From Escherichia coli (lineage in GTDB: Bacteria; Pseudomonadota; Gammaproteobacteria; Enterobacterales; Enterobacteriaceae): a DNA stretch of 64,000 bases. Below, piece by piece: positions 52,620 through 59,300 of the stretch. The translations under genes and the position numbers were made by a program. Positions within the stretch are counted from its first letter, which is position 1. Each line of letters starts with the position of its first letter. Under the pieces are notes generated by a model, which saw only the letters and a list, made by a program, of their open reading frames with translations, was not told where the DNA came from and did no database searches. Location of the stretch: the NCBI RefSeq assembly GCF_030384885.1, contig NZ_CP128613.1. One strand, written 5' to 3'.

Positions 52620-53283
52620 TTAGTTAGTTCAAACTCAAAGAGTGATGTATCGCCTTCTGTTATTATTTATCAATAAAACAGGGAAGACCTTATTGGTCGT
52701 CTGAAATCGACGGTTATTCATTTTCGGATATTTACGAGATATTTAGATATGCAATTTAATCAAATTCGTGTTTCTACCAATTGTAGAGCACAATGCTATT
52801 ACTAAATTTTCATCACTATAAAAGAATCGGCTATAATATAAAGCGCAGTCAGGCATCATTAATCTCTATATTATTCACACAATCTATTTATCAAGTGAAT
52901 TTGATAAATTCCTAATTTAAAATATTCACTATTAAGCCAGCGTCTAACGACGTTAAGATGGCAATGTGCAGATCATGTTATCAGGGTGGGGCGGTAGCGT
53001 ATATTCCTTATACAAACCATCATTCATTTCAATAATGTTTATTGAGTTATTTATTATTGTGAATAAAAAGACATTACAAATATTGGTTTGACTTTGCATA
53101 TCAGGTGTTTTTTTTGTTACTCGATGTAATATACGAGCCTGTCCTTAATAACATCGTGAACCCGTCAGTTGAGTTTGTGATTATTTTGTTGAGTCAACAG
53201 CCCCCTGTTTCTCTGAAGTAAAATCCCGGACAAAATCATCACATAACCATGACACTTTTCTGATATTCCCCGGTAACGCCTGA

Positions 53284-54534
53284 AGCCTGCCCGCTTACCT
53301 GAAGGCGCAGTCTGCGGGCAGGCACCGGATAAGTGAAGAGACTGACCAGTATGCCGGAGGCCACCGGCTGAAACAGGCCGGAAACACGCAGTATGACTAT
53401 GACGCCGCAGGCCGGATGGTCAGCCGCACCAGGCACCGTGACGGCTACCGCCCGGAAACAGAGCGGTTCCGGTGGGACAGCCGGGACCAGCTGACCGGGT
53501 ATTGCAGCGCACTGGGGGTGCAGTGGGAATACCGCCACGACGCCAGCGGCAGACGGACGGAAAAACGCTGCGACCGGAAGAAAATCCGTTTTACGTACCT
53601 GTGGGACGGCGACAGTATTGCGGAAATGCGGGAATACCGGGATGATAAACTGTACAGCGTACGGCACCTGGTGTTTAACGGCTTTGAGCTGCTGAGTCAG
53701 CAGTTCAGCCGGGAAAGGCAGCCGCATCCGTCCGTGGCCCCGCAGTGGGTGACGCGGACGAGCCATGCGGTAAGCGACCTGACAGGCCGCCCGGTGATGC
53801 TCTTTAACAGTGAAGGTAAAACCGTCTGGCGGCCGGGACAGACCAGCCTGTGGGGGCTGGCACTCAGCCTGCCCGCAGACACCGGCTACCCGGACCCGCG
53901 CGGGGAACTGGACCCGGAAGCCGACCCCGGCCTGCTGTATGCAGGACAGTGGCAGGATGCAGAATCCGGGCTGTGCTATAACCGGTTCCGGTACTACGAG
54001 CCGGAAACCGGGATGTACCTGGTGAGTGACCCCCTGGGGCTGGCCGGGGGGGAGCAGACTTACCGGTATGTGCCTAATCCATGTGGGTATGTTGATCCTT
54101 TGGGATTAGCAACGTGTCCCATAATCAGACAGCGGGTGCTTGCTAACCTCGAAGCCAGTCGGGCAGCAAGAGTTACATCAAATTTTGGTAAGCCTCTGGT
54201 TCAGGGAAATAAAACGATTGGCGATAAAGTAAGGGATATAATTGCCAAAGAGAGGGGAACCACTCTAATTGAACAAAATTATAGAGTGACAGGAGGATTA
54301 AGGCGTATTGACGTTGTTGATGGAGTAACGGGTATTGAATCTAAAGTCGGTCGAACAGGGATAACTGCCCGAGTACGGCAAGAGGTAGCCCGTGATATTA
54401 AGATTTTGAGAAGTGGGCAACTTGATCAAATTGAATGGGTGTTTACAAGAAGTCCAACTACAGGGAAGATTGGGCCAACTAAACCACTTGAAGATCTGTT
54501 AAATAAACATGGTATACCGATTATTTATCGATAA
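53284..54534 (+). pseudogene. 5'-truncated Rhs remnant: ~275 aa of Rhs core C-terminus plus a ~141-aa polymorphic C-terminal toxin domain (orphan rhs-CT)
   Basis: open frame from 53284 with YD-repeat-like residues and the terminal DPxGL(x)nDPLGL motif; C-terminal domain begins at 54109 where GC content drops; first ATG at 53416; the >1000-aa N-terminal part of a full Rhs is absent. Confidence 0.7.
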
Positions 54535-54545
54535 GGAGTGATAGT

Positions 54546-55103
54546 GTGAAACTCAAACCGATTGGTGATTTTTTAATTAATAGTGGGTTCGTGAAAAATA
54601 GTGACACTGACTTTTATAAAGTGCATGATAAGTTTGTATACTGTATAAATTTTCAAAAAAAGAGCACGGGTGATATTTTTTTTATAAACACAGGTGTTCA
54701 TCCTATATTCGAAGGTTTTTGCAATGAACTACCAACAAAAGAAATAGATTGCTACATTCGTAATCGTGTGTGTGATGGACTAAGTATATCTTTGCTGAAT
54801 TCTTTTGAAGGTGATGAATTTGTTATCAATGAGATAAAGGATAAAGCGTTTTGTTTTTTTGAATACTTTGATTCATTGAATAAAATATTCGATAGTATTC
54901 GTGTTGTCGATATTGAAGAGAGAAATATTTGCGATGAGCTAAGTAATGTAAGTAGCGTAAGATTAGCTTTGATGTGTATGAACTACCAATATGAGAAAAA
55001 AAATTTGGGACTTGCTTCAGATTTTGCGAACTATGGTCTTGCTATATCTAGAGGCCCGGTACCGAAAAAAGCATTTAAGGATATGATAAAAAAAATAGAG
55101 TGA
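54546..55103 (+). CDS. putative cognate immunity protein of the Rhs-CT toxin
   Basis: 185-aa AT-rich ORF starting with GTG 7 nt after an AGGAG RBS and 12 nt after the rhs-CT stop; typical position and composition of Rhs immunity genes; no recognisable domain. Confidence 0.5.
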   Translation: MKLKPIGDFLINSGFVKNSDTDFYKVHDKFVYCINFQKKSTGDIFFINTGVHPIFEGFCNELPTKEIDCYIRNRVCDGLSISLLNSFEGDEFVINEIKDKAFCFFEYFDSLNKIFDSIRVVDIEERNICDELSNVSSVRLALMCMNYQYEKKNLGLASDFANYGLAISRGPVPKKAFKDMIKKIE

Positions 55104-55109
55104 TATCTA

Positions 55110-55425
55110 ATCCGCTGTAATGCCAATTGTCTGTGTACAGAGAAGGTTAACGGCCTGGATGAGACAATCGTCTACACATGGGACGCTGCAGGCCGCCTGG
55201 CAGAAATCATCGCCCCGGAAGGGAAAACGCAGTACGCGTATGACAAATCCGGCAGGCTGACGGGTATCTTCAGCCCGGACGGCATATCACAGCGCACCGG
55301 CTACGACGAACGCGGGCGGGTGAATGTCGCCACGCAGGGCAGACGGGCCATTGAATACCACTACCCAGGGAAAGATCACGTAACGCTGCTTTTTTGTACT
55401 AAACAATTCGAATTTTATGTTTAAA
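55110..55425 (+). pseudogene. internal Rhs core fragment (YD-repeat segment) without start codon
   Basis: translates to ...VYTWDAAGRLAEIIAPEGKTQYAYDKSGRLTGIFSPDGISQRTGYDERGR..., i.e. Rhs YD repeats, ending in a short divergent tail; GC-rich. Confidence 0.5.
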
Positions 55426-55509: not shown

Positions 55510-56643
55510 ATGGAACTTAAAAAATTGATGGAACATATTTCTATTATCCCCGATTACAGACAAGCCTGGAAAGTGGAACATAAATTATCGGACATTCTAC
55601 TGTTGACTATTTGCGCCGTTATTTCGGGTGCAGAAGTTTGGGAAGATATAGAGGATTTTGGGGAAACACATCCCGATTTTTTGAAGCAATATGGTGATTT
55701 TGAAAATGGTATTCCTGTTCACGATACCATTGCCAGAGTTGTATCCTGTATCAGTCCTGCAAAATTTCACGAGTGCTTTATTAACTGGATGCGTGACTGC
55801 CATTCTTCAGATGATAAAGACGTCATCGCAATTGATGGAAAAACACTCCGGCATTCTTATGACAAGAGTCGCCGCAAGGGAGCGATTCATGTCATTAGTG
55901 CGTTCTCAACAATGCACAGTCTGGTCATCGGACAGATCAGGACGGATGAGAAATCCAATGAAATTACAGCTATCCCAGAACTTCTTAACATGCTGGATAT
56001 TAAAGGAAAAATCATCACAACTGATGCGATGGGTTGCCAGAAAGATATTGCAGAGAAGATACAAAAACAGGGAGGTGATTATTTATTCGCTGTAAAAGGA
56101 AACCAGGGGCAGCTAAATAAAGCCTTTGAGGAAAAATTTCCGCTGAAAGAATTAAATAATCCAGAGCATGACAGTTACGCAATGAGTGAAAAGAGTCACG
56201 GCAGAGAAGAAATCCGTCTTCATATTGTTTGCGATGTCCCTGATGAACTTATTGATTTCACGTTTGAATGGAAAGGTCTGAAGAAATTATGCGTGGCAGT
56301 CTCTTTTCGGTCAATAATAGCAGAACAAAAGAAAGAGCCAGAAATGACGGTCAGATATTATATCAGTTCTGCTGATTTAACCGCAGAGAAGTTCGCCACA
56401 GCAATCCGAAACCACTGGCACGTGGAGAATAAGCTGCACTGGCGTCTGGACGTGGTAATGAATGAAGACGACTGCAAAATAAGAAGAGGAAATGCAGCAG
56501 AATTATTTTCAGGGATACGGCACATCGCTATTAATATTTTGACGAATGATAAGGTATTCAAGGCAGGGTTAAGACGTAAGATGCGAAAAGCAGCCATGGA
56601 CAGAAACTATCTGGCGTCAGTCCTTGCTGGGAGCGGGCTTTAG
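55510..56643 (+). CDS. H-repeat-associated protein (ISAs1-family transposase)
   Basis: 377-aa ORF recognised as YhhI/YdcC/YbfD-type H-rpt protein; AAGGAGAA RBS; sits downstream of the Rhs fragments as in Rhs elements. Confidence 0.85.
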
Positions 56644-56681
56644 TGAGTAGGCCACCGGAACCTCCCCGACAGCCTCTCGCA

Positions 56682-56715
56682 GAACCGTACGTGAAACTCT
56701 CGCTTCATACGGCTC
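56682..56715 (-). ncRNA. group II intron catalytic domain V
   Basis: minus-strand sequence GAGCCGUAUGAAGCGAGAGUUUCACGUACGGUUC matches the domain V consensus (AGC triad, GUAU...ACGUAC helix) just 3' of the RT stop. Confidence 0.75.
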
Positions 56716-56718
56716 CCG

Positions 56719-58041
56719 TCAGGCAAACGCGCTTCCTGGTCCTGCTTTCCAGTGGGCAAACAACTCCGGCTTCTCTTTTGACAGCCTTTCCATTAGCTGA
56801 CACGCCTTCGTCTTTCTATACCGCAGGGTTTTATATTTCTTTCTCGCCCACGCAATCAGCGTCAGATTAATATATCTGCATACTTTCTTCATCGCTGATT
56901 TGTGGTATCTCGCGTAATAATTCAGCCACCCCGATATTATCGGATTCAGCCACTTCGCAATATCTTCGAGACTCATCTCCACCCTGCGTCTGATCCACAG
57001 TTTCCTGAGTTTTCCAATCATGCCTTTCTGCGCACGGTTACTCGCCGCCGGGCTGAAACTCGTAAAGAGGTTCCCCCGCCGGTGGTTACGTGCTCTTCGC
57101 GCTCTGAACGTATACCCCAGAAAATCAAACTGCACTGTTTCATGGTTCGCCTGTCGTTCGCTGTCTTTGCAGTAAACTATTTTCGTTTTCTCCGGATGTA
57201 ATTCCAGTCCACATTCCTGAAAACGTTTTGCCAGCTTATTCAGTAATTCCTCTGCCTGTTGTTTACTGCCACAATGAATTAATCCATCATCTGCATAACG
57301 GCACCAGGGAATTTCCGGATAATGTAACGTCAGCCATTTATCAAACACATAGTGCAGAAATAAATTCGCCAGTACCGGGCTGATGACTCCACCCTGTGGC
57401 GTACCTTTATTTCTTTCCTTCAGTGTTCCATCCGGCATCTGCACCGGCGCTGTCAGCCAGCGGCGAATAGACAGTCTTACCCATTTATCCGCACAATGTT
57501 TATCTACTGCCCTGAGTAATAAATCGTGGGGGATATTATCGAATAACCCTTTAATATCAAACTCAAGACACCAGTCGTATTGCCAGCAACGTTTTCTGGT
57601 GACTGCTATTGCATCCAGCGCTGATTTTCCATGCCGGTATCCGTATGAATCATTCAGGAAATAACGCTCCACTAATGGTTCAAACGTTACCAGCACCGTC
57701 ATCTGCGCTATTCGATCGCTTACTGTCGGTATTCCTAAAAGTCTTTTGCTGCCATCCTTCTTCGGAATTTCCACCGCACGCACTGGCGGCGGCATCCAGC
57801 TTCCCGACGATAACCTGTTCCAGATTTTGTACAGATTTCCTTTCAGATCCCGCTCAAAATCTTTCAGCGTCTGGTTATCCACTCCGGCAGCTCCGGCATT
57901 CGCCTTTATCCGCCGGTACGCTTCCACCACATGCAATTTACTGACCTGAAACGGTTTTGTCTGTTCACACACAGCCTCCTCCTGCCTACAGTTGGGCTGT
58001 GATGCAGACTGCCCGACGCTGTCCCTTCGCTCCACGTTCAT
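56719..58041 (-). CDS. group II intron-encoded reverse transcriptase/maturase
   Basis: RT motifs including GAAGVD, GTPQGGVISP and YADD; start placed at MNVERRDS (about 440 aa); the 505-aa ORF to 58236 probably over-extends into intron domains I–III. Confidence 0.82.
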   Translation of the reverse strand: MNVERRDSVGQSASQPNCRQEEAVCEQTKPFQVSKLHVVEAYRRIKANAGAAGVDNQTLKDFERDLKGNLYKIWNRLSSGSWMPPPVRAVEIPKKDGSKRLLGIPTVSDRIAQMTVLVTFEPLVERYFLNDSYGYRHGKSALDAIAVTRKRCWQYDWCLEFDIKGLFDNIPHDLLLRAVDKHCADKWVRLSIRRWLTAPVQMPDGTLKERNKGTPQGGVISPVLANLFLHYVFDKWLTLHYPEIPWCRYADDGLIHCGSKQQAEELLNKLAKRFQECGLELHPEKTKIVYCKDSERQANHETVQFDFLGYTFRARRARNHRRGNLFTSFSPAASNRAQKGMIGKLRKLWIRRRVEMSLEDIAKWLNPIISGWLNYYARYHKSAMKKVCRYINLTLIAWARKKYKTLRYRKTKACQLMERLSKEKPELFAHWKAGPGSAFA

Positions 58042-58543
58042 TACAAACGCTTCCTCACTACTACGAACAGCTCTGCCCCGGTTTCGCACATCGATACTCT
58101 CATACTCATAATTTCGGTTATTTGTATTTCTCTCTTGACATTGCGACGACCGGTTCCCGTAGTTCCTGCAAAGAGCCCGATACAGCGTCATGCCTGCTAT
58201 ACACCGGACATCATTCACGCAGCATTCGGAATTCACCCGTAAATTAATCCCGGCGGTATCACGAAACCTCCGGTTTTGATGTCACTTAGGACTAACGACG
58301 TTTCAACACAGGTTCGGGTTTACTCATCTCACTGTATCTCACATAGGATCAGATCTCGTCTGATCGTTCCCCCTGCGCTCACTACCATGGCTCTTTACCA
58401 CAGCAGCCGGGGTTGTTTGGGACCGACTTCCGACAGCAGATCCCGGTGGGCCTGCCACCATCTCTTCACAAGCTTATGCTTATTACATGCAAAACGTCCC
58501 GTTTTGCATCTTTGTGCCTACGGCACACCGTAATCTTTCCCTG

Positions 58544-59300
58544 TGTCATTAGTGCGTTCTCAACAATGCACAGTCTGGTTATCGGACAGATCAAGACGGA
58601 TGAGAAATCCAATGAAATTACAGCTATCCCTGAACTTCTTAACATGCTGGATATTAAAGGAAAAATCATCACAACTGATGCGATGGGTTGCCAGAAAGAT
58701 ATTGCAGAGAAGATACAAAAACAGGGCGGTGATTATTTATTCGCTGTAAAAGGAAATCAGGGGCGGCTTAATAAAGCCTTTGAGGAAAAATTTCCACTGA
58801 AAGAATTAAATAATCCAGAGCATGACAGTTACGCCATTAGTGAAAAGAGTCACGGCAGAGAAGAAATCCGTCTTCATATTGTTTGCGATGTCCCTGATGA
58901 ACTTATTGATTTCACGTTTGAATGGAAAGGTCTGAAGAAATTATGCGTGGCAGTCTCCTTTCGGTCAATAATAGCAGAACAAAAGAAAGAGCCAGAAATG
59001 ACGGTCAGATATTATATCAGTTCTGCTGATTTAACCGCAGAGAAGTTCGCCACAGCAATCCGAAACCACTGGCACGTGGAGAATAAGCTGCACTGGCGTC
59101 TGGACGTGGTAATGAATGAAGACGACTGCAAAATAAGAAGAGGAAATGCAGCAGAATTATTTTCAGGGATACGGCACATCGCTATTAATATTTTGACGAA
59201 TGATAAGGTATTCAAGGCAGGGTTAAGACGTAAGATGCGAAAAGCAGCCATGGACAGAAAGTATCTGGCGTCAGTCCTTGCGGGGAGCGGGCTTTCGTAA
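58544..59300 (+). pseudogene. 5'-truncated second copy of the H-repeat transposase gene
   Basis: near-identical to residues ~129-377 of the 55510-56643 ORF from [11 protein letters not shown] onward; lacks the N-terminal third. Confidence 0.8.

Follow-up and report, generated by a model that had tools for sequence, protein, structure and literature searches.

Orphan rhs-CT/rhsI modules of Enterobacteriaceae were reportedly described by Poole et al. 2011 and Koskiniemi et al. 2014, and they are among the described systems closest to the locus analysed here. This locus lies in a stretch of 64,000 nucleotides (nt) of the Escherichia coli contig NZ_CP128613.1 (assembly GCF_030384885.1), hereafter the window, and the gene in question is an open reading frame (ORF) of 185 amino acids (aa) at 54546..55103 on the plus strand, immediately downstream of an Rhs toxin tip. 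Like the orphan modules, the window carries a 5'-truncated rhs fragment that retains the 3' part of the core with its DPxGL motif, a toxin tip of low G+C content and, a few nucleotides downstream of it, a small gene on the same strand. The position, at the distal end of a vgrG-rhs island beside an H-repeat/ISAs1 element, is also the same, and the core homology would permit recombination onto a full-length rhs. Unlike those modules, the window has no full-length rhs at the locus with which to recombine. As far as the two orphan-module studies could be searched, the toxin and immunity families of the window are not among theirs.

A second described system occupies the same chromosomal site. In S-loop 44 of enterohaemorrhagic E. 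coli (EHEC) O157 Sakai the gene order is cusS - vgrG (ECs0607) - chaperone gene (ECs0606) - rhsF (ECs0605) - rhsFI (ECs0604) - orphan rhsG (ECs0603) - ISEc1 - nfrB, with rhsGI (ecs5380) as the partner of rhsG. [quoted passage not shown] The Rhs core of the window shares 93.6% identity with Sakai rhsG and 94.3% with the 3' end of rhsF, and both matches stop at 54104-54110. Because the core matches rhsG at this level up to the cleavage motif, the module of the window is a C-terminally displaced allele of the rhsG orphan. Beyond that point the two systems differ: the EHEC RhsG tip is zincin-like with an HExxH motif and RhsFI is a beta-rich protein of 135 aa, both unlike the proteins of the window, and sequence comparison found no homology of the toxin or its neighbour to RhsFI, RhsGI or the RhsF and RhsG tips. 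Promoter activity, toxicity and RNA binding were reported for the EHEC genes (PMC7618764) and not for those of the window; they hint at ways in which the pair could be expressed and used but are no evidence that it is.

The first-pass annotation, made from the letters of the window and a list of its ORFs, had proposed that the 185-aa ORF encodes the immunity protein of the upstream toxin. We consider this probable, at about 0.8: the ORF would encode the cognate immunity protein that binds and blocks the PD-(D/E)xK-type nuclease tip encoded upstream. The conserved adjacency to the toxin, the main effector/immunity position in E. coli A15 and purifying selection on the gene all add support to the proposal.

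The ORF is a real gene under purifying selection. It is intact, it opens with a GTG codon, and the junction from the toxin stop to its start reads cgaTAAGGAGtgatagtGTG, with 11 nt between the stop and the GTG and a spacer of 7 nt between AAGGAG and the GTG; the start and ribosome-binding site of the first-pass annotation agree with the ORF listing and with the sequence. The same junction is found in E. coli AR_0067 and A15. The markedly low G+C content noted earlier is also clear, at 0.314 for the ORF (0.265 at third codon positions) against 0.626 in the Rhs core part and 0.515 in the whole window. At the ORF's own base composition the probability of a stop codon is 0.089, so that 185 open codons would arise with a probability of ~3e-8. 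The longest open run observed is 198 codons, compared with a mean of 65 and a maximum of 151 in 2000 shuffles of 54450-55150. An identical coding sequence (CDS) in E. coli 2013C-4282 is annotated in RefSeq as WP_000769434.1, "DUF4304 domain-containing protein", the GTG start being the sole mismatch as scored by tblastn, and in an alignment with homologues from Pectobacterium, Yersinia and other genera the GTG falls on their ATG starts. The ratio of nonsynonymous to synonymous substitution rates (dN/dS) between the ORF and the AR_0067 allele, which share 87% aa identity, is 0.29. The improbable open frame, this ratio and the start conserved with homologues together establish that the gene is real.

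The protein is a member of the DUF4304 family (PF14137), which corrects the earlier statement that it has no recognisable domain. The match, found by hmmscan against Pfam, has an i-Evalue of 4.9e-9 and a score of 36.6, aligns residues 7-75 with model positions 2-75 of 115, and has its counterpart in the RefSeq product name; PF14137 is also precomputed for nearly all retrieved homologues, close and distant. The accompanying description of the protein as rich in Cys, Phe and Asn is roughly right, with 18 F, 14 N and 7 C among the 185 residues. DUF4304 has no assigned function in Pfam, and no mention of DUF4304, PF14137 or the RefSeq accessions was found in the searchable literature. Pfam lists DUF4304 only, with no match to the known immunity families (SUKH/SMI1_KNR4, Imm), and searches of NCBIfam, PADLOC and PHROGs yielded no significant match. 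Among 1.84 billion representative proteins, searched exhaustively with HMMER, just 32 relatives were recovered at E <= 1e-3, and tblastn gave no match in phages and one distant match in a Cupriavidus plasmid.

The Pfam match covers the N-terminal domain only, and the homologues also share a C-terminal helical domain. In an alignment of 30 homologues conservation extends over the full length, with Q36, G49 and R73 invariant and G13, N47 and C68 nearly so, and a C-terminal motif, A..FA.YGL......K..FK, is common to the homologues outside the matched Pfam positions. The AlphaFold2 model built from the 30-sequence alignment has a mean predicted local distance difference test (pLDDT) of 95.9 and a predicted template modelling score (pTM) of 0.89. 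It predicts a helix with a four-stranded antiparallel sheet over residues ~1-75, followed by a bundle of helical hairpins resembling tetratricopeptide repeats (TPR) over residues 88-183. The TPR-like structural matches cover 70-97 of 184 residues and are generic, and no solved homologue of the fold was found. A 40%-identical DUF4304 gene was also observed in the Firmicute Paenibacillus massiliensis (L010, 5416-6561), where it follows a LOG-like gene and an unannotated 149-aa ORF, with no toxin neighbour; it may be a stand-alone immunity gene or a hint of a different role for the family.

Toxin and ORF are consistently linked. Among 5426 complete E. coli genomes, 114 carry the toxin and ORF segment, in single copy, with alleles of equal length and with both parts in every case. 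The arrangement recurs across genera: the tip of ~111 aa is followed by a DUF4304 gene in 10 of 11 lineages examined, which include E. coli, Pectobacterium, Yersinia, Morganella, Providencia and metagenomes. The gap between the two genes is 2-45 nt in two E. coli alleles, Pectobacterium quasiaquaticum, P. carotovorum (where the DUF4304 copy is frameshifted), Morganella, Providencia, Yersinia nurmii and three metagenome contigs. The identities of toxin and immunity protein co-diverge, with a Spearman coefficient of 0.90 over 21 pairs that are not independent of one another. In P. polonicum the DUF4304 gene is kept and the toxin is reduced to its last 14 codons, and in Brenneria the DUF4304 gene lies within a same-strand array of small genes matching Pfam "Immunity protein TriTu", YxiF, DUF4303 and DUF7660. 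The Y. nurmii and Morganella copies sit among the orphan toxin/immunity pairs Tox-SHH/SMI1, Endonuclea_NS_2/SUKH and Tox-HNH/Imm50. What marks an rhsI gene is present here: a same-strand gene directly after the toxin tip, an 11-nt gap, a ribosome-binding site over the toxin stop, a G+C content of 0.31, and cassette linkage to one toxin type, including a copy behind a full-length secreted Rhs.

Two further observations concern the surroundings of these pairs in other genomes. Metagenome contig ERZ21862645 (L014, 1-12237) encodes tandem proteins of ~400 aa with varied C-terminal toxins (LHH, Tox-REase-7 and others without assignment), each followed by a small gene, and a homologous toxin tip and DUF4304 pair is embedded in this array, which suggests that the cassette also travels in a polymorphic toxin system other than Rhs. 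In Pectobacterium (L003, 6093-6763) and in Y. nurmii (L013, 594-722, 3666-3968, 5021-5137 and 6142-6276), genes or gene fragments of the SymE_toxin family lie on the opposite strand between orphan rhs toxin/immunity modules, a recurrent association.

The pair is also found behind an intact delivery protein. In E. coli A15 the order is cusS - VgrG - DcrB-related chaperone - Rhs - DUF4304, where the intact Rhs of 1611 aa has an AARxxDxxxH-type N-terminus and carries the toxin tip at 95% aa identity. The A15 DUF4304 gene is 87% identical to the ORF, with an identical 11-nt junction, and PapRG-06-3 has the same contiguous arrangement. Although the 24 toxin homologues in the protein database are all <= 232 aa, the long or intact Rhs proteins of A15 and PapRG-06-3 rule out that the tip exists only as orphan fragments. 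A few strains thus carry the two genes as a standard T6SS Rhs effector/immunity pair, and most carry them as an orphan.

Regarding the toxin, the rhs fragment has a frame open from 53284 and its first ATG at 53416, and the ORF 53416-54534 corresponds to an Rhs 3' end. The fragment matches NCBIfam Rhs_assc_core (E 1.1e-18) and Pfam RHS_repeat, and the core closes with the DPLGL cleavage motif at 54094-54108. The tip that follows the linker has an isoelectric point (pI) of ~10, against 4.8-8.1 for the immunity proteins. Across 22 toxin homologues E77-S-K79 never varies and D68 and Q91 almost never do, which gives a D-x8-ExK..Q motif; the putative catalytic residues are D68 (54310-12), E77 (54337-39), K79 (54343-45) and Q91 (54379-81). 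AlphaFold predicts an alpha-beta-beta-beta-alpha-beta topology, with helices at residues 4-22 and 61-76 and strands at 30-34, 37-44, 48-54 and 81-87. The best Foldseek matches, obtained with the fusion model described below as query, are EndoMS/NucS, BamHI and SfsA, with probabilities of 0.94-0.99 and E values of ~1e-2 (1.4e-2 or worse). We infer from the motif and the predicted fold that the tip is a nuclease toxin of the PD-(D/E)xK fold, an assignment that is supported rather than demonstrated as membership.

The tip resembles the Tox-REase families (Zhang et al. 2012, PMC3482391) and the T6SS effector TseV (PMC9635880) in being a small basic C-terminal domain with a D...(D/E)xK motif and an alpha-beta-beta-beta-alpha-beta core, and the PD-(D/E)xK effectors of both reports are likewise fused to Rhs or PAAR carriers and followed by a dedicated immunity gene. 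It differs from the named Tox-REase families in that none of the 22 toxin homologues matches any Pfam family and in that its similarity to solved nucleases is weak, so membership is not established. Pfam searches with the whole fragment and with the homologues gave no family for the tip, and in the Protein Data Bank (PDB) neither sequence nor profile searches matched the toxin part, the profile search finding Rhs cores alone. Against a Tox-REase-7 protein, hhalign aligned the Rhs core part only. A separate observation concerns the linker between core and tip. Over its first 28 aa (ATCPIIRQRVLANLEASRAARVTSNFGK, window 54109-54192) it shares 93% identity with the corresponding stretch of another main Rhs toxin, from E. 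coli AR_0067 (L002, 5139-5222). The stretch looks like a pre-toxin linker common to both, which could act as a recombination point or play a part in toxin release or translocation.

The mechanism that we propose is as follows. The 185-aa DUF4304 protein would be cytoplasmic and cognate to the toxin tip encoded directly upstream, and its gene is probably co-transcribed and translationally coupled with it. In strains such as A15, where VgrG and an Eag-type chaperone precede a full-length prePAAR-Rhs, the T6SS would deliver the toxin into neighbouring cells, and the immunity protein would guard the producing cell and its kin, most likely through 1:1 binding that blocks the active site or the nucleic-acid-binding face. 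In the window the pair is an orphan module within the rhsF/rhsG island, which lies between cusS and nfrB. As the delivery genes are deleted there, the ORF could protect only against the same toxin from other strains, or against a tip that a promoter inside or upstream of the fragment expresses. That the tip is an active nuclease, that the two proteins bind, that the ORF protects and that the pair is expressed are all steps that we infer.

Several results weigh against this proposal. Binding of the toxin and protection from it by the ORF protein are predicted from indirect, comparative evidence. When toxin and immunity protein were modelled as a fusion joined by a 32-aa linker (AlphaFold2 monomer weights, 8 paired and 24 unpaired rows), both domains folded well and the pTM was 0.57, as two independently placed domains would give, with no sign of a fixed complex. 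The nuclease assignment depends on weak fold matches (E ~1e-2), with no Pfam or PDB sequence match, and no sigma-70-like promoter was found in the toxin-coding part, so that expression in the window is presumed. At one locus (L015) the toxin homologue precedes an unrelated 98-aa ORF instead of a DUF4304 gene. Distant DUF4304 genes are found with no recognisable toxin neighbour, in Paenibacillus (L010), beside recR (L007), at L016 and, after AlpA/HTH genes, at L017. Finally, identity to Pectobacterium is 46% for the immunity protein and 84% for the toxin, and this much faster divergence of the former makes cross-protection among alleles uncertain.

Other explanations were weighed against the same data. 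A role inside the producing cell is unlikely. The toxin tip and DUF4304 would then form a type II toxin-antitoxin-like or regulatory module acting in growth control, stress response or RNA/DNA binding, with DUF4304 as the antitoxin, perhaps with a second role related to nucleic acids. By analogy with EHEC, the stripped pair might have been kept as such a module, with the vgrG upstream region now joined to it or a promoter inside rhs driving its expression, and DUF4304 might do more than neutralise, for example bind nucleic acids or a regulator. The T6SS-independent promoters, toxic RhsGint and sRNA-binding RhsFI, reported for the same island (PMC7618764), speak for it, and so does the 93.6% identity of the core to rhsG up to the cleavage motif, through which such a promoter could be conserved. 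In Salmonella, orphan Rhs elements reportedly work as toxin-antitoxin modules (PMC7043789). In addition, through the deletion the region upstream of vgrG now directly precedes the orphan fragment, and the toxin keeps D68, E77 and K79. However, the EHEC proteins are unrelated in sequence and nothing transfers from them by homology, in A15 the module also serves as a standard T6SS effector pair at the main position, and the promoter scan gave no candidate site in 53296-54545. This explanation still needs the ORF to neutralise the toxin, and it differs from immunity in setting more than in mechanism. A role of DUF4304 beyond neutralisation, if true, could also explain why genes of this family stand alone in Paenibacillus and in other bacteria.

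That DUF4304 is not an immunity protein at all, and is instead an accessory or unrelated protein (a chaperone of the toxin tip, an adaptor or a housekeeping protein) hitch-hiking with the cassette, is highly improbable. The TPR-like matches are generic and span only 70-97 of 184 residues, and the position directly 3' of the toxin stop is the canonical one for immunity genes, whereas Rhs chaperones (Eag/DcrB-related) lie upstream and are separately present in A15 and Sakai. The gene is also kept as the toxin decays in P. polonicum and occurs in immunity arrays in Brenneria, behaviour of orphan immunity genes and unlike that of chaperones. It is scarcely credible that the ORF is a decaying remnant with no present function in the source strain. 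Several features would fit decay: the 5' truncation of the rhs fragment, the deletion of the delivery genes, the many insertion sequence (IS) elements and the group II intron in the island, the frameshift in the P. carotovorum copy and, in NRZ14408, an IS3 element right against the 3' end of the gene. Yet the ORF is intact and of full length, with a ribosome-binding site and an allele identical to that of 2013C-4282, the dN/dS of 0.29 between E. coli alleles indicates past purifying selection, and the catalytic motif of the toxin is intact. Immunity to the upstream tip is the reading that we retain.

Under immunity, this is an ordinary Rhs toxin/immunity cassette whose family name was already annotated, and the understanding of Rhs systems is unchanged. 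What is new is modest: a probable function for DUF4304, a nuclease-like toxin family that is not catalogued, and an immunity fold of two domains for which no solved relative was found. DUF4304 gains a testable function, as the probable immunity partner of one specific Rhs toxin tip, and E. coli A15 offers a natural strain suited to experiments, with the pair behind an intact T6SS Rhs effector. The cassette is also one more for the rhsF/rhsG island between cusS and nfrB, where EHEC immunity proteins were recently shown to take regulatory roles.

Coordinates of the features of the module and its flanks in the window are collected below.

Table 1. Features of the rhs island segment, with positions in the window and the basis of each assignment
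Feature	Position	Strand	Basis or remark
AT-rich cusS-vgrG intergenic region, ending at the deletion junction	52620..53295	+	99.9% identical to 2013C-4282 2051753-2052430
3' part of Rhs core, orphan 5'-truncated rhs fragment	53296..54108	+	Rhs_assc_core and RHS_repeat matches
Linker of ~30 aa from DPLGL to toxin domain (ATCPIIRQRVLANLEASRAARVTSNFGKPL)	54109..54198	+	Cross-genus toxin homology begins at residue 31
Toxin domain, ~111 aa, pI ~10, predicted PD-(D/E)xK fold	54199..54534 (stop 54532-54534)	+	Alignment, AlphaFold, Foldseek
Shine-Dalgarno AAGGAG	54533-54538	+	Overlaps toxin stop TAA 54532-54534; read from sequence
DUF4304-family gene, 185 aa, probable cognate immunity gene (rhsI)	54546..55103	+	PF14137, RefSeq, dN/dS, synteny, AlphaFold model
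Short Rhs core remnant (pseudogene fragment), closes the module	55120..55366	+	90-92% identical to 2013C-4282 Rhs core segments
ISAs1/ISEc1 (H-repeat) transposase gene, 377 aa, bounds the rhs island on the nfrB side	55510..56643	+	ORF listing

The gene order of the window is cusCFBA, cusRS, an AT-rich spacer of 680 bp, the rhs fragment, the ORF, the short Rhs remnant, ISAs1, a group II intron, an ISAs1 fragment and nfrB. The first-pass annotation had overlooked that the upstream Rhs-CT is a 5'-truncated orphan fragment whose delivery region is gone from the window. No Rhs-like ORF of at least 450 aa, and no delivery-competent rhs, is present at the locus, where cusS is followed by the intergenic region and then by the orphan. 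As in other orphans, the N-terminal delivery region is missing and the 3' core homology and DPxGL motif are kept; a full-length rhs/immunity pair upstream, present in 2013C-4282, AR_0067 and Sakai, is missing from the window.

Comparison with 2013C-4282 offers an explanation. The window is 100% identical to this genome from 53296 on, and its spacer up to 53297 is 99.9% identical to the cusS-proximal region. Because both flanks are 99.9-100% identical, the window has lost ~8.9 kb relative to 2013C-4282: vgrG and the DcrB-related chaperone gene, the main rhs together with its immunity gene, and the orphan's 5' part. Homology to the rhs cores of 2013C-4282, A15 and Sakai begins at 53296, and the alignment of the spacer with its cusS-vgrG counterpart in A15 ends 57 nt short of the vgrG ATG. 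The junction (53295/53296-53297) therefore lies ~57 nt before the vgrG start position, and the vgrG upstream region now abuts the orphan fragment. Promoter-like sites, which are consensus matches only, were found at 52978-53036 in the spacer; the same scan found none in 53296-54545, including the toxin-coding part and the region just upstream of the ORF. An imperfect inverted repeat of 38 nt (71% complementary; 53286-53323 and 53867-53904), with one arm at the deletion junction, was also observed in the Rhs core fragment and may be due to chance.

On the other side of the ORF, the 2013C-4282 equivalent of the short Rhs remnant is marked as an incomplete CDS in RefSeq, and an ISAs1 family transposase is annotated at the same position as in the window in 2013C-4282, AR_0067, 042, A15 and Sakai. 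A group II intron on the minus strand (56642-58459) lies between the intact ISAs1 transposase gene and a partial copy (58413-59300). The intron is identified by Rfam matches RF00029 at 56642-56717 and RF01999 at 58342-58459, with an ltrA ORF at 56719-58236, and a direct repeat of 300 nt, 97% identical, is found at 55890-56189 and 58544-58843.

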